A stretch of 39,545 bases of DNA from an uncultured Bacilli bacterium. GTDB taxonomy: Bacteria; Bacillota_I; Bacilli_A; RF39; UBA660. A program made the translations under genes and the position numbers. Position 1 is the stretch's first letter, and the number at the start of each line of letters is the position of its first letter. The stretch is taken from assembly GCA_947628245.1 (NCBI GenBank), contig CANQZH010000001.1:1-39545 (forward strand). Reading direction: 5' to 3'. Shown here piece after piece: positions 13,290 to 32,588 of the stretch. The notes beneath the pieces were generated by a model, which worked only from the letters and a program-made list of their open reading frames with translations, ran no database searches and was not told the origin of the DNA.

Positions 13290-13311
13290 TAAAAAAAGCA
13301 ATTTCTTGCTT
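13290..13311 (-). terminator. Rho-independent terminator closing the Tad-like locus
   Basis: On the minus strand, AAGCAA-gaaa-TTGCTT is followed by T7. The stem overlaps the stop codon of the tadZ-like gene. Confidence 0.55.
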
Positions 13312-14348
13312 TATTTAAAAATATTAAATAATTTTCCACCTTTATCATTACTACTAATATTACTACTAAAACCTAATTTTTGTAACAATGCTTCTAATTC
13401 ATAATGATTATCTAATTTATCATCTAAATAAGGAATATTAAAATATACTTTACTATTAGATTCACTTTCAAAATCACCAACATCATTATTATCTAATACA
13501 CTACGATTTAAAATAATTTTTTCTCCCTTAAGTTTATCAAATATTTGAGGATCTTTTCTAATTAATTTATTTAATTTAATTAAACCTGGTTCAATTAAAT
13601 ATAAAACATCTGTACAATAATCAGTAGCCCCTTCTTCATTTAAATCAATTAAAATAACATCACGATTATAATTAGTAGAAATAAATTTTTGTAATTCAAA
13701 ATGATTAGTATTAGTTAAAGATCGATCATTTAAATAAACAAAATCATTTTTATCAACTTCTACGGCAACAACATTATAATTTTTTTCTAATTGTTTTTTC
13801 AATAAATAAGTTAAAGTAGTACTTCCCGCGTGTTCTGTAATATTTTTTAATCCGATAATTCTAATTGACCTTTTAGATTCAGTAATAACTTCTTCTCTTT
13901 TATTATTTTTATCTTTTTTAGAAGAATGATGTGAATCACTTTCCACATTAGAATCATCAATCATTAAATTTAATTGATGATACTGAGCTACATCTTTATA
14001 ACTATTAGGATTATCAATTAAAAACTTAATAGCATCTATATTTCGGGTGAAATTATAAATTCCCATCGAAACTAAAGAAGATAAATATCTTGGACTATTA
14101 ACAACTTCACTATCATCTAATAAAATAACTACTTTACTCATATCCATATTAACTGATAACTCTTGAATAACTGCTATATTTTGATAGTCTTTTATTGATG
14201 TTATATCTAATACCATTTTATTATAAAAGAAATTACTAAATTGTGAAATTAATTCTTCAGGAGTAAATTCACCATTAATACTCTTAATAATATCAATATC
14301 TAAATTATTCAATAACGCTTCATATTTATTAACAACTTTTACATTCAT
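13311..14348 (-). CDS. TadZ/CpaE-like protein: receiver-like N-domain plus a ParA/MinD-like domain with a degenerate Walker A
   Basis: The N-terminal ~125 aa has a receiver-like alternation (VLDITS...VVILLDD...GIYNF). The C-terminal IRIIGLKNITEHAGSTTLTYLL...VVAVEVD...VILIDLN resembles the deviant P-loop, switch and Walker B layout of TadZ/CpaE, but lacks the GK[TS] lysine. It is the last gene of the Tad cluster. Confidence 0.45.
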   Translation of the reverse strand: MNVKVVNKYEALLNNLDIDIIKSINGEFTPEELISQFSNFFYNKMVLDITSIKDYQNIAVIQELSVNMDMSKVVILLDDSEVVNSPRYLSSLVSMGIYNFTRNIDAIKFLIDNPNSYKDVAQYHQLNLMIDDSNVESDSHHSSKKDKNNKREEVITESKRSIRIIGLKNITEHAGSTTLTYLLKKQLEKNYNVVAVEVDKNDFVYLNDRSLTNTNHFELQKFISTNYNRDVILIDLNEEGATDYCTDVLYLIEPGLIKLNKLIRKDPQIFDKLKGEKIILNRSVLDNNDVGDFESESNSKVYFNIPYLDDKLDNHYELEALLQKLGFSSNISSNDKGGKLFNIFK

Positions 14349-14359
14349 AATCTACACTC

Positions 14360-14848
14360 CTATCCTATTTTATAATTTAAATTATCAGCTGGATAATTAA
14401 CATCAATACTTTCACCAAAAACATTAAAAGTTAACAAATCACCTATAACTGGTAAATTAAACTTGAAAAAAAATCTTACTTGATATTTAGAACGTTTAGG
14501 CAAATTTGTTGTCTTTGTACTTATTTTACTTACACAATAATAATACTTTACCTTACTATTACTTACTAACTCTAAAGATGTTGAAGATAAATTTCTTGAA
14601 CCATAATCTCCTTCATTACAATAATGCATAGTTGTATAATTATTATATAATAAATAATTGTTTATTAATTTAATAGCCCCTTTATCACCATCTCTTAAAC
14701 CTTCATATTTTTCAATAAAAGATAATGCCTCATTCTTAATTTTAAATACTTTATTATAATTTAATGATAAAGATAAAAATGAAACAAAGATTAACATAAA
14801 TGCTACTACTAAACCAACTAACCATATACTACCCGTTGACTGTCTCAT
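14360..14848 (-). CDS. TadE/TadF-like pseudopilin (162 aa)
   Basis: The N-terminus is MRQSTG-SIWLVGLVVAFMLIFVSFLSL, a short charged leader ending in Gly followed by a long hydrophobic helix. It lies directly downstream of the pilin genes. Confidence 0.55.
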   Translation of the reverse strand: MRQSTGSIWLVGLVVAFMLIFVSFLSLSLNYNKVFKIKNEALSFIEKYEGLRDGDKGAIKLINNYLLYNNYTTMHYCNEGDYGSRNLSSTSLELVSNSKVKYYYCVSKISTKTTNLPKRSKYQVRFFFKFNLPVIGDLLTFNVFGESIDVNYPADNLNYKIG

Positions 14849-14856
14849 AAATTCAC

Positions 14857-15330
14857 CTACCCTACATATATCGTCTTAGTATCGCCTTGAACTTTAAAAT
14901 TAAATAAATCATGAAAAATTGGCAAATCTAATTGATAAAATACTTCTACACGATAGTAAGATACTGATGGCAATTCATTAGCATAAGTAGAAGATGTATT
15001 ACTAATAACTTTAGCAATACAAAATGCCGCATTATTACTACTTGCTATTTTTCCTTCCCTTGTATAACCTTGATAACCAGCATCACAAGTTCCAGTAGTA
15101 CGATATGCACTATCAGTTAAATATTGAGCAATTTCGCATAAAGCACCATCATCTCCACTACATTCACCACTAATATCTAAACCATTATGAGTTTGTATAG
15201 TTTGAATTATTCGGTCTTTAACATTAAATGCTTTGGACTGATTAATAGTTAGACACATAAAACCAGAAAAAAGCAAGACAAAAACGATTACTATTTGAAA
15301 TAGCCAAGTTCCACCAATCGCTTCTCTCAT
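14857..15330 (-). CDS. TadE/TadF-like pseudopilin (157 aa)
   Basis: The N-terminus is MREAIG-GTWLFQIVIVFVLLFSGFMCL. It has the same architecture as its neighbour and 4 Cys in the predicted extracellular part. Confidence 0.55.
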   Translation of the reverse strand: MREAIGGTWLFQIVIVFVLLFSGFMCLTINQSKAFNVKDRIIQTIQTHNGLDISGECSGDDGALCEIAQYLTDSAYRTTGTCDAGYQGYTREGKIASSNNAAFCIAKVISNTSSTYANELPSVSYYRVEVFYQLDLPIFHDLFNFKVQGDTKTIYVG

Positions 15331-15348
15331 TATAATACCCCTTTTCTA

Positions 15349-15582
15349 TTAACCTTTCCAAACGCATTTAAAATCTTCGCCTTTTTTTCCCTTTAAATGA
15401 CAATTTACCTCAACACAATTATTATCAGGACATTTTTCACAAATTGCTTGGGAACACTTAGTATTGGAATTCATATTATTTCTAATTACTGGCCATAAAG
15501 CAAAATAGAAAAAAGCAGCTAGACCAGCTATTGCCATTATAATAACAACTGACATATTCAATTCTCCAGATGCTTCTTTCAC
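15349..15582 (-). CDS. Flp-like small pilin, paralog 3 (77 aa, 6 Cys)
   Basis: MKEASG-ELNMSVVIIMAIAGLAAFFYFALWPVI is followed by the Cys-rich tail KCSQAICEKCPDNNCVEVNCHLKGKKGEDFKCVWKG. Confidence 0.6.
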   Translation of the reverse strand: MKEASGELNMSVVIIMAIAGLAAFFYFALWPVIRNNMNSNTKCSQAICEKCPDNNCVEVNCHLKGKKGEDFKCVWKG

Positions 15583-15595
15583 TTTTTTACCTCCT

Positions 15596-15832
15596 TTATT
15601 TTGGACTTACATCGGTTCCACTACAATCAAGATAAGTAGGATTTCCATCTTTATCTAAAGCTTCACATACATTACGTTTATCATTACAAGAATAAGCAGA
15701 TGCACATAATGTTTGACGATTTAAATTATTTTTTATTGCAGGCCATATAAACGCATAGAAAAATGCTGCTATTGCGGCTATTGCTACTACAGTTATAACT
15801 GTAATATTCAATTCACCCGTCGCTTCTTTCAT
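15596..15832 (-). CDS. Flp-like small pilin, paralog 2 (78 aa, 4 Cys)
   Basis: The first 43 aa are identical to paralog 1 (MKEATGELNITVITVVAIAAIAAFFYAFIWPAIKNNLNRQTLC). The C-terminal ~35 aa are divergent. Confidence 0.6.
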   Translation of the reverse strand: MKEATGELNITVITVVAIAAIAAFFYAFIWPAIKNNLNRQTLCASAYSCNDKRNVCEALDKDGNPTYLDCSGTDVSPK

Positions 15833-15848
15833 TTACTTATCACCTCTA

Positions 15849-16079
15849 TCATTTAACTGATGTATCTTGTGGTGTACAATTTACAGTAACTACATTTCCA
15901 TCTTTATCTAAGGCACTACAAGAAGTACCCTCACAATGATAAGCAGATGAGCATAATGTTTGACGATTTAAATTATTTTTTATTGCAGGCCATATAAATG
16001 CATAGAAAAATGCTGCTATTGCTGCTATTGCTACTACAGTAATAACTGTTATATTTAATTCACCTGTCGCTTCTTTCAT
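15849..16079 (-). CDS. Flp-like small pilin, paralog 1 (76 aa, 4 Cys)
   Basis: It has a short leader ending in Gly, a ~25-aa hydrophobic helix and a small Cys-containing tail. A strong RBS (GGAGGGA) and a consensus-like promoter lie upstream. Confidence 0.6.
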   Translation of the reverse strand: MKEATGELNITVITVVAIAAIAAFFYAFIWPAIKNNLNRQTLCSSAYHCEGTSCSALDKDGNVVTVNCTPQDTSVK

Positions 16080-16106
16080 TTCATTCCCTCCTTCAATTCT
16101 ATTAGT

Positions 16107-16135
16107 ATTATAACTTTTTTAATTAAAATTATCAA
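16107..16135 (-). promoter_or_regulatory. SigA-type promoter for the pilin/pseudopilin/tadZ-like operon
   Basis: On the minus strand, TTGATA (16135..16130), a 17-nt spacer and TATAAT (16112..16107). The RBS and the ATG at 16079 follow. Confidence 0.5.
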
Positions 16136-16139
16136 CCAT

Positions 16140-18605
16140 TTAAACTTTAAATATACATTTTTTTAAACTTTTTAAGTAAAATATAAATCCTATTATTCCT
16201 ATTAAAGAAAATATAACTCCAATTGTAAATCCTTTTATATGATAAACCATTTCTATTTTATGTTCTCCTTTAATTAGTTTTAACCCAATAATACTATCCT
16301 TAAACTTAAAATAATCAACCTTTTCACCATCTATTTTTATTTCAATTCCCTCATCATAAGGAATAGTTAAAACTAATAAATTTTTATCATCAGTTGCCGA
16401 TACATTACCACTAAATCCTCTAAAATTTATTTTAACTTCATTAATAATATTTGAATTTAAATCGTCAATTAGTAATTTAAATTTTTCTTCATTAATATAT
16501 TCTAATTTATTATCAAATTTAGGAGTTGAATTTTGACCCTCATTTAAAAATATTTCCAACTTAACTATATCACCTTTTTTTAAAGAATAAATATCTGAAA
16601 TTTCTTCATCATTTAAATATAATTTATATGTATCTTCATATTTAATTATTTTTTGAACATTTTTTTGATCATCTGTCGAGTATATTAAATAATTATTTAA
16701 CAAATTAATTTTACCAATAATATTTTCATTAATGTTATACATAAAAATTACTTTACCCTCCGTATTGCTATCATTTAATTCATAACAATTTTCTTTTTCA
16801 ATAACATTTTCTAATGTTATCACAGGCTCTAAACTTTTTAATTCTTTATTATTTATTAAATTATCTATAACATCAACATTTTGTTCAGATATTAAAAAGC
16901 CTAAACTATTTATAATATATTTATTAGTTAAATATTTATTTGTTGATTCATTTATAACATACTTAACTCCTAATAAAGCATCCATTAAAAAATGACTATT
17001 ATAATTTATTGAATGATTATATTCATTATTATCCCGAAAGTTATATAAAAAATTATTTAAATTATTATTGTATATTGATGAATATCTACCTACTCCATTA
17101 AAATTATATAATAATCCACCATTTTTATTTAAAGTAGTATGAATTCTTAGAAAATTATTATTATCTTGTAAATTATTTATTAAATTACTTATATCAATAA
17201 TTTTTTGACGATCTTCATTAACATAAGTATACCGATAATAAATATTTTGATAATTTACATTTATATTCATAATTATATTAATAGTTAATTCCAATATAAT
17301 TATAAAATAAGTAATAAAACGTAAATTAGAGTTATTATAATTAAAAAAATAGTAGATTATCATAAATAAATTTATAATAAAAAGCCAAATATAAATTTTA
17401 TCATTATCAAAATTATAATAAAAAGATTTATATAAAAATGAACATACCAGAAAAATAACTATTATTATCAATACTTTTTTAGAAATAACTTGATAATGTT
17501 TATCTTTTTTTATAAAAAAATTATAAGCTATTAAAACCCAAAAAGCATTAAAACAAAAAATAAATCTACTAGGTATACCAACTGGCTGTTGAAATAAATG
17601 CCATATATAATATAAAGGATATAAGAATAATGATAAAATATAAATAATAATAACAAATAATGTTGATTTTTTATATTGACGATTCATTTTAGAATAAAAA
17701 ATACTTATCATAACTAAAACAAACACGAACATCGATATATATAAATTTGCTGAATTTAATAAATTAACATTTTCTTTAACAGTTGTGCTCCCCATAAAAA
17801 AATTATATATTGATGGTAAAAATACATCATTAACTTGCCAAAAATTCACATCACTTAGATAAGAATTCCTTCCTTGAAACAAACTAAATATCGTAGGAAT
17901 TATGATATATGATGCTGTTAAACCACAAAATAAACTTGTTACAAAAAATTTAACTATTCTTTGTTTTTTTATTTTCTTTTCATAATTTGAATTATATAGC
18001 AAATAGAAAAAATAAATAACTGCAAAAATACAACACATATAAGCTGTATAATAATGAATTATAATCATATATGTTAAACATCCATAATACATTAAATTTT
18101 TATCATCATTTACTATTTTATCTATTCCAATCATTATTAATGGTAGTAAATACATAGCATCTAAAAACTGATAATTCCAGTAATAAAATGTTGCAAAACC
18201 TGACAAAGCATATATAGTTGAAAAAATTAATGTACTTTTACTTAATTTTTTCCTATAATTAAGTAAAATATTCATCGTTAACCCCATTAAACCAAATTTA
18301 ATTAAAGTTAAAATGACGAAAAATAAATCAAAATTTTCTTTTCTAAATAAAAAATATAATAAATTTAAAGGATTATTTAAATAAGTTGTAAAAATTGGAT
18401 AAAAACTTTCCCCTAATCCTATGTTAAAAGTAAAGATTTTAAAATTTCTTAATCCTTCAAAAAAAGCAGGATATTGCATTAAAGAATCAGAAAATCTTAA
18501 AGAAATATTTCCAAATGGATATATATTTAAACTAAATAAAGCAAAACTAAAAATTAAGATTGGTAATAAAAAAGCTATAGCATAATGAATAAAATTTTTC
18601 CTCAA
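16140..18605 (-). CDS. YfhO-family polytopic membrane glycosyltransferase (GT-C-like), 821 aa
   Basis: A large N-terminal block of more than 10 TM helices is followed by a ~300-aa extracytoplasmic region and a final TM helix, the layout of the B. subtilis YfhO / Listeria GtlB family. The TTG start overlaps the GT2 stop (TTGA). Confidence 0.65.
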   Translation of the reverse strand: MRKNFIHYAIAFLLPILIFSFALFSLNIYPFGNISLRFSDSLMQYPAFFEGLRNFKIFTFNIGLGESFYPIFTTYLNNPLNLLYFLFRKENFDLFFVILTLIKFGLMGLTMNILLNYRKKLSKSTLIFSTIYALSGFATFYYWNYQFLDAMYLLPLIMIGIDKIVNDDKNLMYYGCLTYMIIIHYYTAYMCCIFAVIYFFYLLYNSNYEKKIKKQRIVKFFVTSLFCGLTASYIIIPTIFSLFQGRNSYLSDVNFWQVNDVFLPSIYNFFMGSTTVKENVNLLNSANLYISMFVFVLVMISIFYSKMNRQYKKSTLFVIIIYILSLFLYPLYYIWHLFQQPVGIPSRFIFCFNAFWVLIAYNFFIKKDKHYQVISKKVLIIIVIFLVCSFLYKSFYYNFDNDKIYIWLFIINLFMIIYYFFNYNNSNLRFITYFIIILELTINIIMNINVNYQNIYYRYTYVNEDRQKIIDISNLINNLQDNNNFLRIHTTLNKNGGLLYNFNGVGRYSSIYNNNLNNFLYNFRDNNEYNHSINYNSHFLMDALLGVKYVINESTNKYLTNKYIINSLGFLISEQNVDVIDNLINNKELKSLEPVITLENVIEKENCYELNDSNTEGKVIFMYNINENIIGKINLLNNYLIYSTDDQKNVQKIIKYEDTYKLYLNDEEISDIYSLKKGDIVKLEIFLNEGQNSTPKFDNKLEYINEEKFKLLIDDLNSNIINEVKINFRGFSGNVSATDDKNLLVLTIPYDEGIEIKIDGEKVDYFKFKDSIIGLKLIKGEHKIEMVYHIKGFTIGVIFSLIGIIGFIFYLKSLKKCIFKV

Positions 18606-19555
18606 GTAACATCATCTTCTTTCTTGTCACTTTCTTTAATTATATATAATGGTCTTTTTTTAGTTTCTAAATAAATTTTAGAAATATATGCCGAACAAAT
18701 TCCTAAACAAAATAATTGAATACCTGAAACAAAGAAAATTATACATACTAATGATGGCCACCCACTAACTGGATCACCAAAAACTAATGTTTTAAAAATA
18801 ATAATTAAAATCATAATAAATGAAATAAGACAAAAAATAATTCCTAAAAAAGTTGAAATCATTAAAGGAACTGTCGAAAAGCCAATAATAGCATCAAAAG
18901 CATATAACATTAATTGCCAAAAACTCCATTTAGTTTTTCCGGCAACTCTTTTAACATTGTCATACGTAATCCATTTTGTATTAAATCCTAAATAACTAAA
19001 TAATCCTTTCGAATAACGATTATATTCTGGTATTGTTAATATTGCATCAGCAACTTCTCTTGTCATCAAGCGATAATCTCTTTCTCCAGATACCATTCTA
19101 ACTTTACTTATTTTAGCAATAAATTTATAAAAAGCTTCTGCTAAAAAACTCCTAATTATTGGTTCACCTTTACGATTTTTTCTTTTAGCTATAACTATAT
19201 CATATTTTTCTTTTACAATGCTTTTATACATTTCAATTAAAAGTTTTGGGGGATCTTGTAAATCTACATCCATAAAAGCTACATAATCACCATTTGCATA
19301 TCTTAATCCCGCTAATAAAGCAGCTTCTTTTCCAAAATTTTTAGAAAAAGACAAATAATGAATCCAGCTATTATCACTTTTCAATTTTTTTATGAAATTT
19401 AAAGTGTTATCCCGACTACCATCATCAACAAAAATTATTTCTAAATTTATCTTTTTTTCCTTAAATTTTTCATTAATTTTCATTATTTCTTTATAAAATA
19501 ATAATATACTATCTTCTTCATTAAAACATGGTACAATCACTGATATTTTTTGCAT
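18602..19555 (-). CDS. GT2-family polyprenyl-phosphate glycosyltransferase (CsbB/GtrB/DPM1-like)
   Basis: ISVIVPCFNEE, VDDGSRDNT and DVDLQDPP (DxD) are followed by two C-terminal TM helices, which is the GtrB/CsbB architecture. It is coupled to the yfhO-like gene. Confidence 0.8.
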   Translation of the reverse strand: MQKISVIVPCFNEEDSILLFYKEIMKINEKFKEKKINLEIIFVDDGSRDNTLNFIKKLKSDNSWIHYLSFSKNFGKEAALLAGLRYANGDYVAFMDVDLQDPPKLLIEMYKSIVKEKYDIVIAKRKNRKGEPIIRSFLAEAFYKFIAKISKVRMVSGERDYRLMTREVADAILTIPEYNRYSKGLFSYLGFNTKWITYDNVKRVAGKTKWSFWQLMLYAFDAIIGFSTVPLMISTFLGIIFCLISFIMILIIIFKTLVFGDPVSGWPSLVCIIFFVSGIQLFCLGICSAYISKIYLETKKRPLYIIKESDKKEDDVT

Positions 19556-19609: not shown

Positions 19610-19637
19610 GAAAAAAAGATAACCAAATTGATTATCT
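19610..19637 (-). terminator. Weak hairpin plus T-run after tadC (possible attenuating terminator)
   Basis: On the minus strand, AGATAA-tcaatttgg-TTATCT is followed by T7. The stem is only 6 bp and AT-rich, and it overlaps the tadC stop. Confidence 0.3.
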
Positions 19638-23739: not shown

Positions 23740-26700
23740 CTATTTCCAAGATGGTCCAATTCCATCTTTTCTACTTAATACACAATTACCATTAGTTACA
23801 CAATATTTAGAATCTAACCATAAAGTAAAATCAGGTCTTTCAACATTCGAAGTAAAATATTTATTAGAATTACTATTTAAGAAAGTACTACGACATTTAA
23901 CACTATATTCAATACCAGTATTTGGATCAACATATCTTTCACATTTCAAAGCATTTTCTCCAGCATTTTCTTCACCTTCAGGAATAGTAGTATTAGCATA
24001 TGTCTGAGCTTTTTCATTATATGACCTTATATTTGCTTTTTGTTGTTGAGTTATTGTATACGAATATTCTGGATTTTCATAGGCATCTTCACCTAACTCT
24101 TCAATATCATTCTTAGTAGTTTGAGCTTTTAAAGTTTGCCAATTGTATCCAGCATTTCGACAATCACTTTGATTTTCAATAGTACAAGAATTAGGGAATA
24201 AATCATTTAATGTTACAGTTCTAAACTTATAAGTTGTATTATTACCATCAAAGATACAAGTCTTACAATTAACTTCACATTCACCATCACATTCTTCGTG
24301 AATAGTACAATTATCGCCCTCACAACCAACTTCACATTCATCACAGTTATTAACATAAGCACATACATATCCAGCTTCCTGAGTTAATGTACTATTATTA
24401 CCAGTATTTCCACATTTTTTCTCTTGTGGTAACTTATTATATTCAGTTAATACACTAATATTATCACCAGAACTTACTAATCTACCTAATGCATCACTAC
24501 TATTTGATTGACCAATATTACTAAATTTCAAGACAAATGGGAATGCTCCCTTACCAGTTCTAAGTTCAACTGGTAATGCATCAGCAGGTAATCTAGTCCA
24601 TAAGCACTCAGTAAAACTTGTACCTTCGCAAATAGTTCCGCTCTTTACTGTACCATATTGATGGTATGTACTAAAGCTTTGATTTGGAATATAAGTACCA
24701 GCCATTGTCTTAGTCTTTTGAATCCATTTAGCTTGGCTAACAATAGTTTCAGCATTTCGACAACCATTACTATCACAAACAGTATAAGTTAAATTTTTAT
24801 ATAAACCACTAGGAGCAGCACTATTATTTGAAACTAAAGCACCACTTAAACATCTATATTGATTATCAGTATCACCTAAACAATAAGTATCTGAAGTTAC
24901 TGTTGAAACACTGCCACTTAGAGCAAATTTACCATTAGATATTTTAGCATATTCTTCTTCATGATAAGTAAAATTAACCTCTGGACTAAACTTCATACTA
25001 TTTTGCCATCCAGTTGAACAAGCATTGTATTCAGCAATAGTTTCTTGCATTTCATTATTTAAAGCAACTAATTTATTATAATTATCCTCACTCTTATCAG
25101 CATTCCATCTATTATAAGCATTAGTAACTTTTTCATTTATCTTTTTAATATCATCCTCAAATAGCTCAGTATCAATTGGTTTATCAGGATTTTCAGCAGA
25201 ACTTACATAACAATTTCTTGTTCCACTTATTTTAGTAGATAAAGTAAAGTAACCACCACTTGTTGAATATCTAGCTGTTGGTACTGAAAATTGATAATCT
25301 TCATCACACCAAACTTTACAATAACGATTATTTTTCAACTCATTAACAGCTTCATATGAAGTACCAGTCTGATCATTAGCATCTATTACACATTGTTTTA
25401 CAGGATTAACCGTTTCATTACAATCAGACTTAACTTTATTAATATCACTTATTGTACCTGTAATCTCACTTTCAGTATTAAAATTATTACACGTTCCAGG
25501 TACTGAAACAGTTGCATTACAATTTGGACATTTTTCAGCATATTCATCACAAGCTGGATCTTTCGGATTTTGTTCACACTTATCCTTTAATGGTGGACAA
25601 TAACAATCATCTAAGTATTCTCTTTCACTACATTGTTGGCCACCTTGATCTTCAACTTTCTCATTGCAATAATAAACATTATCATCATTTTGATCAGGAG
25701 TTTCACAAATATGTAAACATTGTTTACGATATTTAGCTCTAGTAGTAGCTTTACCATCATTACCATAATATGTTTTATTACCAGCAGCATCATACTCAAT
25801 ACTACAAGAATTAGTACATTTATCAGGACAACCTAATGAACCAACTCTTGGATCATCTTTAAGAACTTTTTCAGTAGAAACATTACCATCAGGAGAAGTT
25901 GTAGATAAAATATAATTTCCTGTATATTTACCATTTACCTCTTCACATACACATTCATTTGTAGGAGGAAGTTTTAACTCAGTTTGAATTAAGAAAGAAG
26001 GACTATAATTCTTAATTACTAACATTCTTTGTTCTGTTTTAAGATTAGGTGGATCGACAACAAACATATTTGCTGTTGGATTTCTATTATCCCTAAATGC
26101 TGTCTTAATTCTAATACCATATTTTTGATCAGCACTTGGTTTACCATTTTTTGTATTAATTCTAACAGTATATCTACCTTTATATCCCCCATTAGGATCA
26201 GCTATTTTTTTCTCAGTAATATCATCTTTGCCATTACAAGTATAACCATTCTCGCAAGTTATTTGAAATTGTTTCCATTTAATTTCTTCAGGCGCATGCC
26301 CATTTTTAGCACTTATATCAAATTTAATAGTAACATAATCGCCTTCTAATTTAGTATTAACAATACTAATATCCCAAGCATCTTCCCAAATAGTTCCATT
26401 TTTTACTAATTGTTCATATGTGGTTTTTTTATTCTTAATTTTATCTCCAACTTTAACAGCATCTTCAGCAATTTTTAAAGCAGCTTTAACAGCAGAATTA
26501 CTTAAATTCCAAAAGCTTCTATTTCTTCTATTTTCCCATAAATACTTACGGTTTTCAACACTACTACCATTACGATTAACATCAAGTTTTCCATAATAAG
26601 CTTCAATCCATCTAAAAACTAAAGTTCCTATCATTCTAACTTGGGCAGATTGTTTACCTCCATCATAATATTTACTTTTTATCATTTGTTGATAAGCATA

Positions 26701-27051
26701 AGTTGCAGCAACATCAGATGCTTGATATGAGCCTTTCTTTTGAGGTGAAATAACTCTTTCACACACGTGACTTTTTTCAATCATATCCTTAGCAGGAGCT
26801 AAACAATATGATTGACCATATAATTCACCATTTTTAGTAATGTTATAAAAATTAATATGTGATCCTGTCGCGTCACTAGAACCAACATGATCTAATCTAA
26901 CATACTTTTCAGGACATTTAGGTTCTTCAGAAGTAACAGCAGCAGTTACATTAAAAAATGTATACTCTTTTTCTTCTGCTTTAACAACATTAACATTAAT
27001 TAATAAAATAAATACATATAAAGTAAATAATACTTTCAAAACTTTTTTCAT
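23740..27051 (-). CDS. 1103-aa secreted Cys-rich protein (cassette B, second gene); no family recognised
   Basis: The Sec signal is MKKVLKVLFTLYVFILLINVNVVKA-EE. I hand-counted about 49 Cys. There is no LPXTG or C-terminal TM helix. It is a paralog of 28344..31766 with conserved Cys positions. Confidence 0.8.
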   Translation of the reverse strand: MKKVLKVLFTLYVFILLINVNVVKAEEKEYTFFNVTAAVTSEEPKCPEKYVRLDHVGSSDATGSHINFYNITKNGELYGQSYCLAPAKDMIEKSHVCERVISPQKKGSYQASDVAATYAYQQMIKSKYYDGGKQSAQVRMIGTLVFRWIEAYYGKLDVNRNGSSVENRKYLWENRRNRSFWNLSNSAVKAALKIAEDAVKVGDKIKNKKTTYEQLVKNGTIWEDAWDISIVNTKLEGDYVTIKFDISAKNGHAPEEIKWKQFQITCENGYTCNGKDDITEKKIADPNGGYKGRYTVRINTKNGKPSADQKYGIRIKTAFRDNRNPTANMFVVDPPNLKTEQRMLVIKNYSPSFLIQTELKLPPTNECVCEEVNGKYTGNYILSTTSPDGNVSTEKVLKDDPRVGSLGCPDKCTNSCSIEYDAAGNKTYYGNDGKATTRAKYRKQCLHICETPDQNDDNVYYCNEKVEDQGGQQCSEREYLDDCYCPPLKDKCEQNPKDPACDEYAEKCPNCNATVSVPGTCNNFNTESEITGTISDINKVKSDCNETVNPVKQCVIDANDQTGTSYEAVNELKNNRYCKVWCDEDYQFSVPTARYSTSGGYFTLSTKISGTRNCYVSSAENPDKPIDTELFEDDIKKINEKVTNAYNRWNADKSEDNYNKLVALNNEMQETIAEYNACSTGWQNSMKFSPEVNFTYHEEEYAKISNGKFALSGSVSTVTSDTYCLGDTDNQYRCLSGALVSNNSAAPSGLYKNLTYTVCDSNGCRNAETIVSQAKWIQKTKTMAGTYIPNQSFSTYHQYGTVKSGTICEGTSFTECLWTRLPADALPVELRTGKGAFPFVLKFSNIGQSNSSDALGRLVSSGDNISVLTEYNKLPQEKKCGNTGNNSTLTQEAGYVCAYVNNCDECEVGCEGDNCTIHEECDGECEVNCKTCIFDGNNTTYKFRTVTLNDLFPNSCTIENQSDCRNAGYNWQTLKAQTTKNDIEELGEDAYENPEYSYTITQQQKANIRSYNEKAQTYANTTIPEGEENAGENALKCERYVDPNTGIEYSVKCRSTFLNSNSNKYFTSNVERPDFTLWLDSKYCVTNGNCVLSRKDGIGPSWK

Positions 27052-27053: not shown

Positions 27054-27815
27054 TTATCTTCCCTCTATATTTTGCTTAAAACCAATTTGTTTTTTTCGAT
27101 ATCTAATTATAGCAACAATAACAATTGCAATTACCAATACCCCTACAATAATAATTTCAATATTTAAAATATTTTTTTTATTACTTTCTTCTTCATTTTC
27201 TTTTTTTGTTTCACTATCATTTTTTTTACTTTCTTGTGATTCTAAATATTCACCATAAGCTGTCTCACCATCTATTTCACTAGTTACATATTCTTGGCAA
27301 TAATAACTATCATTATTTTCACAATACAAATATGAAGAATTTTGATTATACATTGGTGTTTTTAATTCAACTGTTCTTAATTCTTGATTAATACAATCTG
27401 AAACAGCTGAATATATTATTAATTTATAAGTTCTAATTTTAATAGTATCAGGTACTTCATAAGTTATTGTTCCATTTTTAGTATCATTATAATGATACTC
27501 TTTATTTAAACCATCATCAAGATTTTGTAAAACAACATATATCTTATCAGTAACGTTTTCTATTTTAATTGTAACTTTATCCTCCATAAGATATTCACTT
27601 AATTCACCTTCTTCAACACTTGAAGGTGAAACTTCAGGATGAAGAACTCCATTTCTATCATACACAACTGTATCAATGTTGTAATTAAATGTAACATTCG
27701 ATGAAACTGTATTAATTTCAAGTTGAGTTTTATTATCACATTCTGCTTTTACCTTTCCTATCGAAAACATTGTCATTATACATAATAGTAACAAATAAGC
27801 TTTTTCTTTTTTCAT
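27054..27815 (-). CDS. ~253-aa type I membrane protein (cassette B, first gene): signal peptide, beta-rich ectodomain with 4 Cys, acidic/Lys linker, C-terminal TM helix
   Basis: The ORF track starts at 27842, but a near-consensus -10 abuts that ATG. I therefore prefer the ATG at 27815 (MKKEKAYLLLLCIMTMFSIGKVKA-ECDNK), which has GGTGA 7 nt upstream. The C-terminal TM helix is IIIVGVLVIAIVIVAII, followed by RYRKK. Confidence 0.65.
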   Translation of the reverse strand: MKKEKAYLLLLCIMTMFSIGKVKAECDNKTQLEINTVSSNVTFNYNIDTVVYDRNGVLHPEVSPSSVEEGELSEYLMEDKVTIKIENVTDKIYVVLQNLDDGLNKEYHYNDTKNGTITYEVPDTIKIRTYKLIIYSAVSDCINQELRTVELKTPMYNQNSSYLYCENNDSYYCQEYVTSEIDGETAYGEYLESQESKKNDSETKKENEEESNKKNILNIEIIIVGVLVIAIVIVAIIRYRKKQIGFKQNIEGR

Positions 27816-27842
27816 TAATTTCACCAACCCATTTATACTCAT

Positions 27843-27871
27843 ATTCTACCAAATTATCATATCATTTTCAA
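27843..27871 (-). promoter_or_regulatory. SigA-type promoter of cassette B (TG-extended -10)
   Basis: On the minus strand, TTGAAA (27871..27866), a 17-nt spacer and TGgTAGAAT (-10 at 27848..27843). Confidence 0.55.
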
Positions 27872-27900
27872 TCATTTTATTTAAAATTTTTAGATATAAA

Positions 27901-27927
27901 AAAAAGAGTGAAAAATAACTCACTCTA
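27901..27927 (-). terminator. Rho-independent terminator after cassette A
   Basis: On the minus strand, AGAGTG-agttattttt-CACTCT is followed by a T-run. It overlaps the stop of the 135-aa gene at 27925. Confidence 0.45.
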
Positions 27928-28332
27928 ACTATTTGAATCTAACTCTAATATAGCATCTACTCTATTAACTATATCAAAACTTTCAACATTAGAATTTAAC
28001 TGATAAGTATTACTTTTTGTTATAACTTGAACACTAGCTTTTGGAGGAGATTCATAAATACTATAAAAATCAATTTGATAAGTACTTAAAGATACATTTT
28101 CTGCAAATCTTCTTAAAAAATTTTCTACAAATTTTTCTTTATTTATTCTTAACTCTCCACTTTCACGATAATAACCATAATCTACAGCATCTACCATTGC
28201 CGCTTCAGATATTTCTTTTAAAACATAATAATCTTGAGTATTAGTTGCTGAAACATTAGATATTAGCATCATAACTATTATAACTCCAACACCTAAAACT
28301 ATTAACCAATAGCCCCAATAAGATTCTTTCAT
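27925..28332 (-). CDS. 135-aa protein with a pilin-like N-terminus (cassette A, third gene)
   Basis: The N-terminus is MKESYWG-YWLIVLGVGVIIVMMLISNV. The first ~75 aa are almost identical to 23322..23729. Confidence 0.6.
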   Translation of the reverse strand: MKESYWGYWLIVLGVGVIIVMMLISNVSATNTQDYYVLKEISEAAMVDAVDYGYYRESGELRINKEKFVENFLRRFAENVSLSTYQIDFYSIYESPPKASVQVITKSNTYQLNSNVESFDIVNRVDAILELDSNS

Positions 28333-28343
28333 CTTTTAACCTC

Positions 28344-31300
28344 CTATTTCCAAGATGGTCCAATTCCATCAGTCCTACTTAAACAATTACCTAATGGACA
28401 ATAATCAGTTTCAGTCCATAATTTAAATCCACTAGCATTTCTTGCAAGTTGAGTAAAATATTTACCAGTATTTTCATTTAAGAAAGTACTTACACATTTA
28501 ACACTGTAATCTAAACCATTATAATTTTTCTTTTTACACTGATAAGCATCAGTCCCATCTTCCATTGTCGTATTTTCATATGTACCTACGTCTTTATTAT
28601 ATTGTCTTATAGCCATTAATTGACTAGCAGTTACTAAATAAGAATACTCAGGAGTTTCATAAACACCATTACCATTACCTTCAATATCATTTTTAGTAAC
28701 CTGTGCTTTTAAAGTTTGCCAATTATAACCTTCTTTTCGACAATTTACACTATTAGTTTCACAAGAATTAGGGAATAAATTATTTAATGAAACAGTTCTA
28801 AATTTATATGTCGTATTTTCTCCATCAAATATACAAGTCTTACAAGACACTGGACAATCACCTTCACAAGTTTCATGAATAGAACAACTATCTCCCTCAC
28901 ATCCAACACTACAAGAATCACAATTATTAACATAAGCACAAACATAACCAGCTTCTTGTTCAAATATTCCTCTTGGATTTTCACACTGAGCAACATCAGA
29001 AGTAACATAAGCATTTAATACACTATTGCTTCTTCCAATTAATCTTCCTAATGAATTATCAATATTTGATTGACCAATATTTGCAAATGAAAGAACAAAC
29101 TTAAAGGCACCTTTACCAGTTTTAAGTTCAACCGGTAAAGCATCATCTGGAAGTCTAGTCCATAAACAACTATCATAACCAGTTACCGAACATACAGAAC
29201 CAGTTTTAACTGTTCCATATTGATGATAAGTATTAAAATTTTGACCTGGAGTAAAATTACCCGATTTAGTTACTGTTTTTTGAATCCAATTTGCAAGATT
29301 AATTCCAAAACTATTCCACGTACAAGTACTTTCATTACAACTAATATATTGATAAATAGAACCAGTCATCGGTGGTGTAGAATAAGATGTTCCAATACAA
29401 TTATATTGACTATTTATATTACCAACACAATAATTTACCGAACTACTAACACTTGGGTCTCCAACCATTTTAAATGTACCAGCTCTTGTATCATAACCAT
29501 AATCATCATAATTAAAGTTAATTGCCGGATTAAAATTCAAATCAGAATCAGGCATATTAACCCAATTAGAACAAGCTTGATAATTACTAACATATAATTG
29601 AATATTAGTATTAGTTCTTTCATACAAACTTCTACTCTTACTTTCTTGATCAATAATTTCATTTTTAGACATCTCAACTTGTTCACCACTTACAACATTA
29701 CTATGACTAGCATCAGTTATTTGAAGATAATTTGCACAAGTATATTTCTTATCTTCATCACTAGCTGGATCACTTCCTGTACCAGCAAGACAAGCTCTCC
29801 ATTTACTCCATTCATTCCAATATCTTAATAAATCAACATTTAAAGCAGAAATTTCATTAATAAATTCCGTACTATTAATACCTTCAGTTGGATCATCAGC
29901 AGAAGCCGTATAACAATTTCTTGTTCCGGTAATCGCAGCATTTAAAGTGAAATATCCACCACTAGTAGAATATCTTGCAGTTGGAACTGTAAATTGATAA
30001 TTTTCATCACAATATACTTTACAATATCTATTTCCATTCATAAGTTTCTTAGCTTCAAAACTTTCACCAGACATATCATTTTTACCTAGAACACACATCT
30101 TAACATTATTAGCACTATTATTACAAGCTGTCTTAGCTGGATTTATATCATAGAAATAACCACCAACAGATGAATTAACATCAAAATCATTACAACTATT
30201 TGGAATTGATGAACTAGCTCGACAATTAGGACATTTTTCTTCGTACTCAGCACAATCAGGATCACTAGGATTAGCAGTACATTTTTCTTTTCTAGGTGTA
30301 CAATAACATTCTTCAATATATTCTTGACCATTACATACCCTACCGCTATTATCAGTTCCTGGATCAGCACAATAATAAAGACCTTCTTCATTATCACTAG
30401 GAGTTTCACAAATATGTAAACATTGGCTCTTATATGTAGCTTGATCAACAATATTACTACTTCCATCATCAGTATCTTTACCATAATAAGTTACAGTACC
30501 ATCAGGATTTACAATTCTCTCACATTCATAATCTTCGGTATCACCGCAAGGAGGGCAATTATAAGTAGCAAAATTTGGATCAGTATTGTCAACAATTGCA
30601 CTTGTTGTTACTCCATTTGTAGTAGTATATAAAATATATCTACCAGTATAATTATTAGAATCATCTGCTTCACAAACACAAGAAGTAGTTGGTTCAAATG
30701 GAATTTCCCTTTGTATTTGAAACGTTTTACTATAATTTTTAACTAAAATAAATTTTTGATAACTTGCATGGTTTGTTGGTTTATATATCATTATATGAGC
30801 ATTTGGATTTTTTATATCACCATAGCTTACTGTAACTTTAGCAAGATTATATTTTTCGTTCCATTTACCCTTCGTCTTTTGAATAGTTATATTAAAAGTT
30901 CCACTTCTATTTTTATTACTACTAACTAAACTACTACTAACTAATTTATTATTATCATTTTTAGTTTCGAATTTAAAACTTCCCCAATTGACTACACTAG
31001 GAGCTTTTACAGGATTTTTAGGAGCTATCGTAACATTTAAAACTACATTATTTTTATCATCAGGACCAGTAACACTATTAATTGTTGAAATCCACTCATC
31101 AGTCCATATTACTCCAGCATCAACTAATTGTTGATAAGTTTTCTTACCCTTTAAAATATAATCACCATATTTTACAGCATCCTTAACTAAAGATAAAGCA
31201 GCTTTAACCTCGGATGTATCTTGATACCAATATGTTGTACTATTTCGGCTTTTATAAGAGAAAATATTAAATTTATAATCATTATCTCCAATTGACTCTA

Positions 31301-31766
31301 AATAACCATATCGTGACGCAATCCATCTAAATGCCATCGTTCCAATTAAACTACTTCTTCTTCTACCACTACTCTCCGTATTTGAAATATATTTATTAGC
31401 AATCATTAATTGATAAGCTCTCGTAATTGCTACATCAAAAGCTTGCCTATTAAGGCTAGATGAATTTTCAGGATTAATTTCTCTAACACAAGTATGTTGT
31501 CCGTTATTAAAATCAGATGTAGCCCCAGGTTTAAAACAAAAAGCTTGACCATAAGCCCCTGTATTACTTGAAGCCTTTTTTTTAGTAGTAAACATATTAT
31601 AAAAATTAATAACATCTTTTTTACAATGTGATCTATCTACCCCAACATGATGCAAATATAAATAAGTGTATTGGCAACCTCCATCAGAAATATTTTTTCC
31701 CTCTGCTTTTACTACACTTAAAAAACAAAATAATAAGATAAAACTATATATTATTTTTTTAAACAT
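28344..31766 (-). CDS. 1140-aa secreted Cys-rich protein (cassette A, second gene); no family recognised
   Basis: The Sec signal is MFKKIIYSFILLFCFLSVVKA-EG. I hand-counted about 50 Cys. It ends ...DGIGPSWK like its paralog, and has no wall-sorting signal. Confidence 0.8.
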   Translation of the reverse strand: MFKKIIYSFILLFCFLSVVKAEGKNISDGGCQYTYLYLHHVGVDRSHCKKDVINFYNMFTTKKKASSNTGAYGQAFCFKPGATSDFNNGQHTCVREINPENSSSLNRQAFDVAITRAYQLMIANKYISNTESSGRRRSSLIGTMAFRWIASRYGYLESIGDNDYKFNIFSYKSRNSTTYWYQDTSEVKAALSLVKDAVKYGDYILKGKKTYQQLVDAGVIWTDEWISTINSVTGPDDKNNVVLNVTIAPKNPVKAPSVVNWGSFKFETKNDNNKLVSSSLVSSNKNRSGTFNITIQKTKGKWNEKYNLAKVTVSYGDIKNPNAHIMIYKPTNHASYQKFILVKNYSKTFQIQREIPFEPTTSCVCEADDSNNYTGRYILYTTTNGVTTSAIVDNTDPNFATYNCPPCGDTEDYECERIVNPDGTVTYYGKDTDDGSSNIVDQATYKSQCLHICETPSDNEEGLYYCADPGTDNSGRVCNGQEYIEECYCTPRKEKCTANPSDPDCAEYEEKCPNCRASSSIPNSCNDFDVNSSVGGYFYDINPAKTACNNSANNVKMCVLGKNDMSGESFEAKKLMNGNRYCKVYCDENYQFTVPTARYSTSGGYFTLNAAITGTRNCYTASADDPTEGINSTEFINEISALNVDLLRYWNEWSKWRACLAGTGSDPASDEDKKYTCANYLQITDASHSNVVSGEQVEMSKNEIIDQESKSRSLYERTNTNIQLYVSNYQACSNWVNMPDSDLNFNPAINFNYDDYGYDTRAGTFKMVGDPSVSSSVNYCVGNINSQYNCIGTSYSTPPMTGSIYQYISCNESTCTWNSFGINLANWIQKTVTKSGNFTPGQNFNTYHQYGTVKTGSVCSVTGYDSCLWTRLPDDALPVELKTGKGAFKFVLSFANIGQSNIDNSLGRLIGRSNSVLNAYVTSDVAQCENPRGIFEQEAGYVCAYVNNCDSCSVGCEGDSCSIHETCEGDCPVSCKTCIFDGENTTYKFRTVSLNNLFPNSCETNSVNCRKEGYNWQTLKAQVTKNDIEGNGNGVYETPEYSYLVTASQLMAIRQYNKDVGTYENTTMEDGTDAYQCKKKNYNGLDYSVKCVSTFLNENTGKYFTQLARNASGFKLWTETDYCPLGNCLSRTDGIGPSWK

Positions 31767-32536
31767 TATACTCCCCTCATACTTTCCATCTCTTTAGTTC
31801 TTTTTCTTCTCTTAAAAATACTAACAATAATTATAACTAACAATATAAAAATAATCACAATCCCAACAGAATATAATATTATATTTTTAGAATTATCTTC
31901 TTTATTATTTTGAGTAGGATTTTCTTCTTCATCAGGCGTTTCCATATTTTTCATATACTCGTCTAATAAACGTCTATATTCACTTTCACTTATACTAACA
32001 TCAGTTGTAACATATTTATTACAATAACTAGCATTATTATTTTGACAAACACCTTCTTCAAAATAATCATTATACTTAGGTGTTGCAACTTCTATTTTCC
32101 TTAATTCTTCCGTTTCACAATCCAAAGACTCTGAAAAAATTGTCAAAGTATAATGTCTAATATTTAAAGTATCAGGAACATCATAAATAAGAGAGCCATC
32201 TTCTAAATCTTTATAATGATATTCTTTATTAATGTTATCCTCGGCACTATATAAAGCAACATACACTTTATCAGTAACATTACTAATTTTAAGCACAACC
32301 CTTTCATCTAATTGATAAGATGAAGTTTCAGAAATTTCAATATCACTAGGATTCAATTCCCGATGAATATTACCATCAATATCAAAAACAAACGTTTCAA
32401 TTTCATAATCCATAGTAACATTAGAAGCAGCCGTACTAAGTTCTAATCGAGCTTTACTATCACATACAGCATTAACTTTATTAATAAAACCAAACAAAAC
32501 AAGTAAAAATAACAAATATCTGCCTGTGTTTTTCAT
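31766..32536 (-). CDS. ~256-aa type I membrane protein (cassette A, first gene)
   Basis: The ORF-track start (TTG at 32569) lies inside the predicted -10 element. I prefer the ATG at 32536 (MKNTGRYLLFLLVLFGFINKVNA-VCDSK). The C-terminal TM helix is ILYSVGIVIIFILLVIIIVSIF, followed by KRRKR. There is a TAATG overlap with the 1140-aa gene. Confidence 0.65.
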   Translation of the reverse strand: MKNTGRYLLFLLVLFGFINKVNAVCDSKARLELSTAASNVTMDYEIETFVFDIDGNIHRELNPSDIEISETSSYQLDERVVLKISNVTDKVYVALYSAEDNINKEYHYKDLEDGSLIYDVPDTLNIRHYTLTIFSESLDCETEELRKIEVATPKYNDYFEEGVCQNNNASYCNKYVTTDVSISESEYRRLLDEYMKNMETPDEEENPTQNNKEDNSKNIILYSVGIVIIFILLVIIIVSIFKRRKRTKEMESMRGV

Positions 32537-32559
32537 ATTACCATTCCTATCTTTAGTTA

Positions 32560-32588
32560 AATATACCAAAAATAAATAATTAATTCAA
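32560..32588 (-). promoter_or_regulatory. SigA-type promoter of cassette A (TG-extended -10)
   Basis: On the minus strand, TTGAAT (32588..32583), a 17-nt spacer and TGgTATATT (-10 at 32565..32560). The layout matches the cassette B promoter. Confidence 0.5.

Follow-up and report, generated by a model that had tools for sequence, protein, structure and literature searches.

The window analysed in this study is a stretch of 39,545 nucleotides from an uncultured Bacilli bacterium (contig CANQZH010000001.1, positions 1 to 39,545). It carries a single unbroken block of minus-strand genes (positions 13311-32569 according to the open reading frame (ORF) listing) which, on balance, probably encodes a chromosomal Tad-like filament machine whose dedicated task in uncultured gut Bacilli is the display of a covalent thioester adhesin. 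The system is known here from its genes, from alignments and from one predicted structure. The original prediction, made from the DNA letters, of a monoderm Tad-like type IV filament locus was supported, although the locus is divergent; its gene order and flanks recur in dozens of relatives. The predicted gene order was borne out by the ORF listing, in which every ORF of the block lies on the minus strand in the sequence given: two cassettes (A and B) of an anchor, a giant protein and a DUF5411 protein, then genes for a CpaB-like protein, an assembly ATPase and two platform-like proteins, a glycosyltransferase-yfhO pair, three pilin-like genes, two pseudopilin-like genes and a tadZ-like gene.

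Related loci were the best 80 of at least 575 matching stretches from a one-genome-per-species collection, and L-numbers denote these or further fetched loci. Gene order across the 80 loci was tabulated by BLASTP, giving 81 loci together with the window. Homologues were examined for the TadB-like (39), TadZ-like (35), pilin-like (77), both pseudopilin-like (38 and 38) and DUF5411 (80) proteins.

The giant protein probably carries a class II thioester domain

The giant protein of cassette A (28344-31766, minus strand) has 1140 aa with 51 Cys. Its signal peptide is followed by a thioester-like domain (about residues 30-360) and a variable middle; the C-terminal 600 aa or so are conserved and end in GIGPSWK. 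Its counterpart in cassette B (23740-27051, minus strand; 1103 aa) is 47% identical and retains the thioester-type Cys and Gln; the identity of the two proteins is 34% over the thioester-like region and 63% over the last 200 residues. An LPXTG motif and a C-terminal transmembrane helix are absent from both proteins.

The giant-protein profile gave no PDB sequence-profile match. An alignment of 84 giant-protein sequences was used for motif conservation counts and for an AlphaFold model of the 1140-aa protein, which reached a mean predicted local distance difference test (pLDDT) score of 81.3, compared with 36 when 3 sequences only were supplied. A Foldseek search of this model against the PDB returned as the only significant matches two chains of one entry, 6fwy (best E 5.6e-5, probability 1.00, target TM-score 0.46). 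This entry is the thioester domain, of class II, from Enterococcus faecium EfmTIE86. No match was found among viral structures. The modelled N-terminal region comprises a beta-barrel and strands (residues 35-96), three long helices (105-205), a seven-strand sandwich (225-330) and a returning hairpin (339-356), with pLDDT values mostly of 80-97. This topology agrees with the published description of class II thioester domains, in which the only universal residues are the bond-forming Cys in the motif [YFL]CΦζ and the Gln in ΦQζΦΦ (PMC6194298). Both motifs are conserved inside the otherwise poorly conserved N-terminal half. The Cys motif reads F-C77-F-K in protein A, and in the family Y or F occupies the first position in 77/84 sequences and C the second in 82/84, followed by L/I/M/V and D/S/N. 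The Gln motif reads Y-Q337-K-F-I in protein A, with Q in 83/84 sequences followed by R/K/N/D, M/F/L and L/I/V. Moreover, hhalign aligned the YCLD consensus of the family to FCVD of a Pfam-confirmed TED_2 plasmid protein (probability 55%, E 1.2e-4). The fold match and the motifs suggest that the N-terminal 330 residues of the 1140-aa protein are probably a class II thioester adhesin domain. The earlier description of this protein as simply Cys-rich therefore falls short, and the presence of such a domain changes its functional reading.

Homologues of the giant protein were found poorly by a word-indexed search (1-2 homologues), probably because low-complexity words filled the candidate list, whereas an exhaustive HMMER search yielded 438 representative clusters. 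The conserved portion of the family is its C-terminal 450-600 residues. In the model, the C-terminal half contains a long helical hairpin, beta-rich domains and a nine-Cys cluster (residues 943-978), and it had no structural match. In the giants of four related loci (L070, 5234-8560; L071, 5124-8525; L076, 5439-8717; L080, 4484-7846) the N-terminal half and the C-terminal end are different and residues 575-1099 are homologous (hhalign 99.6%, E 9e-25), as expected if this region faces the machine. The pattern of conservation points to the C-terminal half of the giant as a putative machine-facing docking part and to the N-terminal half as its fast-evolving part. The nine Cys lie within 36 residues (window positions 28833-28940), are 95-100% conserved and were modelled with pLDDT below 50; they may form a metal site or a disulfide knot.

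Anchor and duplicated cassette

The anchor of cassette A (31766-32536, minus strand) has 256 aa if translated from the ATG favoured by the alignment; its ORF reaches back to a TTG at 32569. Its features are those of a type I membrane protein: a signal peptide precedes an ectodomain of some 165 aa, in which four Cys are invariant in the alignment, and a charged linker, one transmembrane helix and a basic tail follow. An anchor gene was present upstream of the giant gene in 69 loci. In the window, the stop codon of anchor A overlaps the start of the adhesin gene, which suggests coupled synthesis. The anchor of cassette B (27054-27842, minus strand) is 41% identical to anchor A.

Cassettes A and B had been described as paralogous, and this was confirmed by protein identities of 41% (anchor), 47% (giant) and 76% (DUF5411 protein) as well as by a diverged tandem DNA repeat (period about 4.6 kb, identity 71-82%). 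Between the cassettes, neither inverted repeats nor a shufflon were found. In nearly all of the 80 related loci a cassette, mostly in single copy, lies directly upstream of the ATPase block, so that its co-occurrence with this tadA clade, which the original prediction had put forward as a check, was verified by the neighbourhood comparison. The cassette proteins have the look of a module for surface adhesion. A doubled cassette was seen only in the window, L001 and L049. The cassette is thus not a non-canonical addition as first proposed: a single cassette is the norm of the clade and only its duplication is unusual. The wider proposal of an undescribed Tad-dependent display or adhesion system was largely upheld for the cassettes and refuted for the glycosyltransferase-yfhO pair. 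In Clostridia, DUF5411 had previously been connected with CpaF-type ATPases by Miller et al. (2022, PMC9523054), who predicted a system that was uncharacterised.

Small proteins with a common prepilin-type leader

The third gene of each cassette encodes a 135-aa DUF5411 protein (cassette A, 27925-28332, PF17424 186.3 bits; cassette B, 23322-23729, 180.9 bits; cutoff 30; both minus strand). The cassette A protein starts with MKESYWG/YW and a hydrophobic helix, and almost all of the 80 sequences examined start with M-[KRQ]-[ES]-S-[YF]-W-G followed by a similar helix. Three pilin-like genes (15349-16079, minus strand; 76, 78 and 77 aa) encode proteins in which the leader MKEA[TS]G/ELN and a hydrophobic helix are followed by a small tail containing 4-6 Cys, and two pseudopilin-like genes (14360-15330, minus strand; 157 and 162 aa) have the leaders MREAIG/GTW and MRQSTG/SIW. 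Among their homologues, the pilin-like and pseudopilin-like proteins start with M-[KR]-E-A-x-G and a hydrophobic helix of about 22 residues. A leader of 6-7 residues with a near-invariant terminal Gly is thus common to four small-protein families (pilin-like, two pseudopilin-like and DUF5411). A short leader with a terminal Gly is a hallmark of type IV prepilins. Because of the leader that it has in common with the pilin-like proteins, DUF5411 is probably a minor pilin.

Searches of family models returned no Flp_Fap match in Pfam (E<=0.01) for the three 76-78-aa proteins and no TadE match in Pfam or NCBIfam for the two pseudopilin-like proteins, whose likeness to TadE is one of architecture only (leader, Gly and helix). 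None of these five proteins had any pilus-related match in Pfam or NCBIfam.

In many relatives, DUF5411 is extended C-terminally by a Peptidase_M15 domain (L037, 2564-4246; L054, 7523-9121; L072, 7051-8574), sometimes together with Big_2 and SH3_3, and in L074 (13445-14959) Peptidase_M15 is found on pseudopilin-1 instead of DUF5411. One member of the giant family (P0128) has an NlpC/P60 insert. An N-terminal pilin-type module joined to functional domains gives these proteins, by analogy, the look of modular minor pilins, and peptidoglycan hydrolase modules make sense for a filament crossing a monoderm wall.

In a subclade resembling Mycoplasma sp. CAG:776, a T4SS_pilin (PF18895)-like gene after tadC replaces the module of pilin-like, pseudopilin-like and TadZ-like genes (L041, 12877-13296; L048, 12872-13255; L058, 12880-13224). 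A clear T4SS_pilin gene (29.4 bits) is also located downstream of the L090 locus at 20259-20636.

Assembly ATPase, CpaB-like, platform and TadZ-like proteins

Among the Tad-type machine components only the ATPase exceeds a curated family threshold. The 365-aa ATPase (21335-22432, minus strand) has the Walker A motif GETGSGKT, visible Asp, Walker B and His boxes, and an above-cutoff match to T2SSE (PF00437, E 4e-25). Its NCBIfam scores were 112 bits for VirB11, 98 for conjugal TadA, 92 for TrbB, 84 for FlaI, 73 for ComGA and 43 for PilB, with those for VirB11, conjugal TadA and FlaI all below cutoff; the runner-up match is a TadA family of helicase/secretion neighbourhoods. Against solved structures, VirB11, CpaF and FlaI scored equally at about 63 bits. 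According to hidden Markov model and BLAST scores, the ATPase is about equidistant from CpaF and VirB11, with Firmicutes plasmid CpaF/VirB11 proteins as its nearest relatives, and homologues with 83-86% identity are named CpaF or TadA at NCBI. As judged from these comparisons, the ATPase is a member of the VirB11/CpaF/FlaI group and not of the PilB/GspE/ComGA group.

The CpaB/RcpC-like protein (22462-23304, minus strand) has an N-terminal transmembrane helix and a periplasm-side domain. It scored 27.9 bits against RcpC (cutoff 28.8) and 33.6 bits (E 2.4e-8) against TIGR03177 (cutoff 71), and its Priestia counterpart matches SAF and RcpC. The gene is single in the window and tandemly doubled in about 20 related loci (L005-L022, L029, L074 and L078).

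The two platform candidates are polytopic: the TadB-like protein (20424-21320, minus strand; 298 aa) and the TadC-like protein (19636-20424, minus strand; 262 aa). T2SSF was matched in Pfam neither by these two proteins nor by the 39 TadB-like homologues, and the platform proteins had no pilus-relevant Pfam or NCBIfam match and no PDB sequence-profile match. The TadB-like protein aligned in hhalign (94.6%) to a Priestia plasmid protein that itself scores 24.2 bits on T2SSF (cutoff 25.2), and the TadC-like protein to the Priestia gene in the same position (97.1% probability). Between the TadB-like and TadC-like profiles, which are shallow (Neff 1.7), hhalign revealed no relation. The labels TadB and TadC are reasonable but indirect, since the T2SSF link runs through the Priestia plasmid homologue.

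The 345-aa protein at 13311-14348 (minus strand) is possibly TadZ-like, with a receiver-like N-terminal region and a degenerate P-loop (G-x-K-N-x-T-E-H-A-G-S-T-T). Weak CbiA/MinD/ParA matches were obtained for 10 of the 35 homologues (best E 0.0085), the window protein itself having a single irrelevant sub-threshold family match. Its profile gave no match in a PDB profile search or in hhalign against Priestia AAA_31 and E. coli MinD. Of the original Tad core labels, that of the T2SSE ATPase thus stood, and those of Flp, TadE/F, T2SS-F and TadZ were left without backing from a family model.

Distribution, synteny and divergence

The ATPase has thousands of database relatives. For the best 120 the identity is 78-100%, and these sequences derive from bins of gut metagenomes that carry the labels Bacilli, Tenericutes, Mycoplasma sp. 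CAG:776 or Candidatus Ventrenecus. In the one-genome-per-species collection, close relatives were found in at least 575 stretches, and across the best 80 loci of these the ATPase is 75-95% identical. The order anchor, giant, DUF5411, CpaB (one or two copies), ATPase, TadB-like and TadC-like was found in essentially every one of the 80 loci with enough flank, and about half of them continue with pilin-like genes, both pseudopilin-like genes and a TadZ-like gene. Genes for a CPBP protease and a metallophosphoesterase flank many related loci. The conserved order and flanks therefore indicate a vertically inherited core locus and not an island. This agrees with the earlier statement that the block does not look like a recent island: its flanks are conserved, no integrase is present, and order and flanks recur in dozens of related genomes.

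Identity to the window declines from the motor towards the surface components. Median values are 83% for the ATPase, 77% for the TadB-like, 72% for the TadC-like and 66% for the TadZ-like protein, compared with 63% for DUF5411, 53% for the CpaB-like protein, about 50% for the pilin-like proteins, 30% for the anchor and 28% for the giant. For the three closest genomes, identity is 95% in the ATPase, 50-67% in the giant and 50-68% in the anchor. Judging by these identities, the anchor and the giant protein diverge together.

Comparison with known systems

The monoderm Tad/Flp (type IVc) systems of Bifidobacterium breve and Eubacterium rectale have in common with the window a CpaF/VirB11/FlaI-group ATPase with two single-domain platform-like proteins after it, a CpaB/SAF-like protein, several pilin-like and two pseudopilin-like genes, a possible ParA/MinD-like protein and the lack of a secretin. 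The E. rectale tad locus is reportedly the source of the TadZ structure. The window differs in that its small proteins have neither a Flp or TadE match nor the G/XXXXEY motif and have a leader of just 6-7 residues, in that its platform proteins have no direct T2SSF match, in that no TadV is found nearby, and in that the cassette of adhesin, anchor and DUF5411 is built in.

A DUF5411 operon of Roseburia, Ruminococcus and Eubacterium was classed as secretion-related on the basis of a language-model prediction (Miller et al., 2022, Nat Commun, PMC9523054). This operon resembles the window in its CpaF-type ATPase, PilC/GspF-like protein, DUF5411 and large adhesion/invasion-like protein. It differs in that it belongs to Clostridia, in that no mechanism was given and in that the large protein was called internalin-like and not thioester, with no mention of an anchor or a shared leader (PMC9523054).

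A plasmid of Priestia koreensis has the order SLH, Ig-like (993 aa), DUF5411, SAF, weak AAA_31, ATPase, T2SSF-like, TadC-like and DUF4320. The same order was found in L090, a more distant metagenome-assembled genome, with a giant of 2506 aa and with a CPBP protease and a PedC-like thioredoxin as flanking genes. On plasmids, the ATPase is closest to the CpaF/VirB11 proteins of pLS20, Enterococcus pZB18, Paraclostridium and Peribacillus (29-35% identity, E down to 1e-48); the pLS20 protein is 31% identical to the window ATPase (E 8e-32). Each of these plasmid ATPase genes lies 2-4 genes downstream of a gene for a thioester/isopeptide adhesin and is itself followed by genes for two membrane proteins and several small proteins with an N-terminal transmembrane helix. 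The pairing of non-homologous large surface proteins with DUF5411 or small transmembrane proteins and this ATPase class thus recurs on plasmids and in distant lineages.

In the pLS20 family, the gene for a class II thioester adhesin without a sorting signal (TIEpLS20) immediately precedes genes 36-41, which include those for a small protein with an N-terminal transmembrane helix, a VirB11-like ATPase, two membrane proteins and additional small proteins with an N-terminal transmembrane helix. The pLS20 module differs in that it forms part of a plasmid operon for type IV secretion that also encodes VirD4 and VirB4, and its adhesin TIEpLS20 has CnaB domains and lacks the Cys-rich C-terminal region of the window giants. 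TIEpLS20 is needed for conjugation in liquid, has no sorting signal and is sortase-independent, and its attachment was called an intriguing open question by its authors (PMC8092201).

The TIE adhesins EfmTIE86, BaTIE and SfbI share with the window giant the class II thioester fold match and the Cys and Gln motifs. In contrast to them, the window giant has no LPXTG/sortase signal and no detected CnaB stalk, its third motif has diverged, and it has a family-specific C-terminal region of about 600 aa with the 9-Cys cluster and no structural match.

A more distant likeness is seen in PilY1/PilC with minor pilins, in the modular pilins of Streptococcus sanguinis and in PilV of IncI R64/TP114. In these type IV pilus systems a large adhesin combines a conserved machine-facing half with a variable target-facing half, and pilin-like modules are fused to functional domains; they have no sequence or fold relation to the window proteins. 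TP114 is reported to have a type IV pilus that displays adhesins for mating (PMC9045228).

Proposed mechanism and alternative explanations

In the mechanism that we favour, Sec would export the adhesin, and the co-evolving anchor would hold it at the membrane before assembly. The conserved C-terminal region of the adhesin would dock on DUF5411 and the pseudopilins, which would constitute a priming or tip complex. In type IV pili, minor pilins form such a complex with PilY1. The ATPase and the platform would polymerise the small pilins beneath this complex, and polymerisation would push the adhesin through the peptidoglycan, with fused M15 or NlpC/P60 modules assisting in some relatives. The exposed thioester would react with a nucleophile on a host or bacterial surface, resulting in covalent attachment. 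The doubled cassette would give the strain two adhesin specificities. The fast evolution of one adhesin half and the duplicated cassette suggest that strains differ in their attachment specificity.

Several observations weigh against a filament that displays a thioester adhesin. Filament assembly is predicted from the genes, and the thioester assignment draws on a predicted structure with a TM-score of 0.46 together with motifs. Pfam, including its TED and TED_2 models, gave no match on either giant protein. The TQxxΦW motif of thioester domains has diverged to A-Φ-R (T-M-A-F-R-W; A145 in 51/84 and R147 in 81/84 sequences); this motif is dispensable for bond formation (PMC6194298). The assignments of the platform, CpaB-like and TadZ-like proteins are weak or indirect, being sub-threshold or transitive. 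The pilin-like proteins have the junction G/ELN[MIAT]T in the 77 homologues and not the Flp G/XXXXEY, which places them, as far as motifs and family models tell, outside the known pilin families. The motif of A24 prepilin peptidases (GxGD[VILMFA][KPR]) was absent from a six-frame translation of the window, and in the flanks of the 80 loci, scanned for up to 10 kb per side in ORFs with a minimum of 45 aa, its sole match lay within a protein in the position of the giant, so that leader cleavage is putative. A gene for the enzyme could lie in another part of the genome. One subclade has no module of pilin-like, pseudopilin-like and TadZ-like genes beside the core. Finally, hhalign comparisons of window proteins with the products of pLS20 genes 38, 39 and 40 and with the Paraclostridium and pZB18 counterparts of gene 36 were not significant; gene 40 was compared with the DUF5411 profile.

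The alternative that fits best is a type II-like secretion device crossing the wall, in which a short pseudopilus piston would push the giant off its anchor and either release it or leave it on the wall. We regard this as unlikely. In its favour, the giant is made with a Sec signal peptide and has a membrane tether encoded separately, relatives have peptidoglycan hydrolase modules joined to DUF5411, to pseudopilin-1 or to the giant, the core and cassette occur without adjacent pilin genes in one subclade, and Miller et al. classed DUF5411 operons as secretion-related (PMC9523054). However, the two or three major-subunit-like pilins with disulfide-rich tails in about half of the loci fit a real filament better, and a released covalent adhesin would be of little use. 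We also know of no type II-like piston in a monoderm, which counts against such a device.

A DNA-transfer or mating apparatus, in which filament and adhesin would give the cell contact needed for conjugation-like transfer or DNA uptake, is improbable. It would be in line with the conjugative Firmicutes CpaF/VirB11 proteins as nearest plasmid relatives of the ATPase (29-35%, E down to 1e-48), with the TadA family of helicase/secretion neighbourhoods as second NCBIfam match, with the T4SS_pilin-like genes after tadC in one subclade and in L090, and with the pcrA or AddAB-like genes downstream. Nevertheless, no relaxase, VirD4, VirB4, VirB6 or integrase was found in the window or in the flanks of related loci, pcrA is adjacent in the closest relatives only, and the conserved chromosomal neighbours and the ATPase identity of 75-95% (best 80 of at least 575 stretches) indicate vertical inheritance.

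Equally improbable is that the anchor and giant form a self-sufficient tethered adhesin next to an unrelated Tad-like pilus, their adjacency being mere conserved synteny among close relatives: the anchor alone could hold the adhesin, and between the cassettes lie a terminator-like hairpin and promoter-like sites, but DUF5411 has a pilin-type leader and always lies between giant and CpaB, distant lineages and plasmids also combine a large surface protein, there a non-homologous adhesin, with DUF5411 or small proteins with an N-terminal transmembrane helix and with an ATPase of this class, and the C-terminal half of the giant is conserved while its adhesive half is variable.

A display filament carrying the thioester adhesin is thus preferred, and a bolder form of it was also considered. 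According to this, the Tad-like filament tip with its thioester warhead, sometimes with hydrolases, would act as a covalent harpoon that latches irreversibly onto a bacterium or host; the same principle would operate in mating of the pLS20 family, and DUF5411-adaptor filaments would be Firmicutes-wide, possibly with CPBP replacing A24. We consider this extension doubtful. If true, it would answer how sortase-independent TIE adhesins attach.

The preferred reading draws a link between covalent thioester adhesins and type IV filament machines, two fields that have been studied apart; a search of the accessible literature found no paper linking them. The locus may explain how adhesins without the usual cell-wall anchor are delivered to the surface, and it leads to the hypothesis that the neighbouring ATPase, platform and small-protein genes would hold the sorting-signal-less thioester adhesin on a pLS20-bearing cell. 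DUF5411 gains a proposed role, and a giant-protein family without a Pfam match is defined. The occurrence in at least 575 stretches and the motor identity of 75-95% (80 loci) suggest that the machine matters to gut bacteria known almost only from metagenomes.

The glycosyltransferase-YfhO pair is a lineage-specific insertion

Between tadC and the pilin-like genes lie a gene for a family 2 glycosyltransferase (GT2) of the PgfS/CsbB polyprenyl-phosphate type (18602-19555, minus strand; Glycos_transf_2, E 2e-32) and a gene for a PgfM-like GT-C glycosyltransferase of the YfhO family (16140-18605, minus strand; YfhO 385 bits, E 1e-114), which overlap by 4 nt. Their best NCBIfam matches are PgfS, PgfM1 and PgfM2, all below the equivalog cutoff; GT2 scored 300 bits on the PgfS model (cutoff 500). 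The pair had been predicted to be a component of the system, and this was not sustained by its conservation, as it was found in 2 of the 81 loci, namely the window and L025. L002 and L003, with ATPases of likewise 95% identity, lack it. Because it is confined to these two loci, the pair is, as read from gene neighbourhoods, a lineage-specific and recent insertion at the tadC/pilin junction that stands outside the system. The larger insertion in L025 (8815-14256) also follows tadC; in addition to GT2 and YfhO it encodes a polytopic protein of 512 aa and an acyltransferase fragment of 61 aa. Scanning metagenome contigs with YfhO gave no result.

The original prediction had judged the composition of the block to be similar by eye. 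At a GC content of about 26% for the window, the GT2-YfhO stretch (16000-19000) has 17.7-21.7% GC compared with 26-31% in the rest of the locus. This low GC agrees with a separate origin, and membrane-protein composition could contribute to it. The pair resembles known CsbB/GtrB-YfhO pairs (S. mutans PgfS/PgfM, Bacillus CsbB-YfhO) in its adjacent GT2 and YfhO genes and in family scores, and differs from them in its unusual position inside a pilus operon, confined to two loci. In this lineage, GT2-YfhO may glycosylate the pilins or the adhesin.

Flanking genes and candidate expression signals

The flanks are as originally described, with pcrA on one side and a CPBP protease gene, a metallophosphoesterase gene and a 448-aa ORF on the other; murF is the label of the earlier prediction only for this ORF. 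Two further explanations of the block as a whole were rejected: a recent mobile island, given the conserved flanks and lack of an integrase, and a conjugative element, given the lack of a relaxase, VirD4 or VirB4.

The original prediction had also named promoters and a terminator. Promoter-like consensus sites are indeed located in the intergenic gaps concerned (32588-32560, 27871-27843 and 16135-16107), and a terminator-like hairpin (27905-27926, minus strand) follows cassette A and lies between the cassettes. Their frequency does not exceed that of shuffled controls: promoter-like sites were not enriched in this window of 26% GC (154 found, 154.2 expected), and the hairpin is a consensus match only (3 sites found, 3.2 expected). 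Operon boundaries are therefore not established by these scans.

In the window, L002 and L003, pcrA (window 11167-13242, minus strand) starts 69 nt past the TadZ-like gene on the same strand, and in another subclade an AddAB-like nuclease/helicase pair lies downstream (L083, 14662-20047). The proximity of pcrA or other helicase genes is probably a coincidence, because pcrA is non-adjacent in most loci.

The CPBP/Rce1-like intramembrane protease gene (32682-33386, plus strand) is the divergent neighbour of anchor A. Besides the window, at least 21 related loci and L090 have a CPBP protease gene as a neighbour of the system, and one also lies beside the analogous module on Enterococcus pZB18. 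Such genes are located at 2641-3087 in L085 and at 2800-3477 in L090. Given this recurrence as a neighbour, the protease may be a leader peptidase or maturation factor.

Two other window ORFs, at 10809-11162 (minus strand, 117 aa) and 5238-6077 (plus strand, 279 aa), had no Pfam match. The spore-coat gene for CotJB and a YunG-like gene were found in the window (400-861, minus strand, and 35638-36078, plus strand) and that for the spore-coat protein CotZ in L090 (1340-1768); these genes occur in a lineage whose bins often carry the labels Tenericutes or Mycoplasma. A thioredoxin-type protein of the PedC-like/DUF6568 Pfam family is encoded in the window at 972-1667 (plus strand), 30 kb from the locus, and in L090 directly next to the system (3494-3961). 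It could help to form the disulfide bonds of the 51-Cys adhesin, of the anchors and of the pilin tails.

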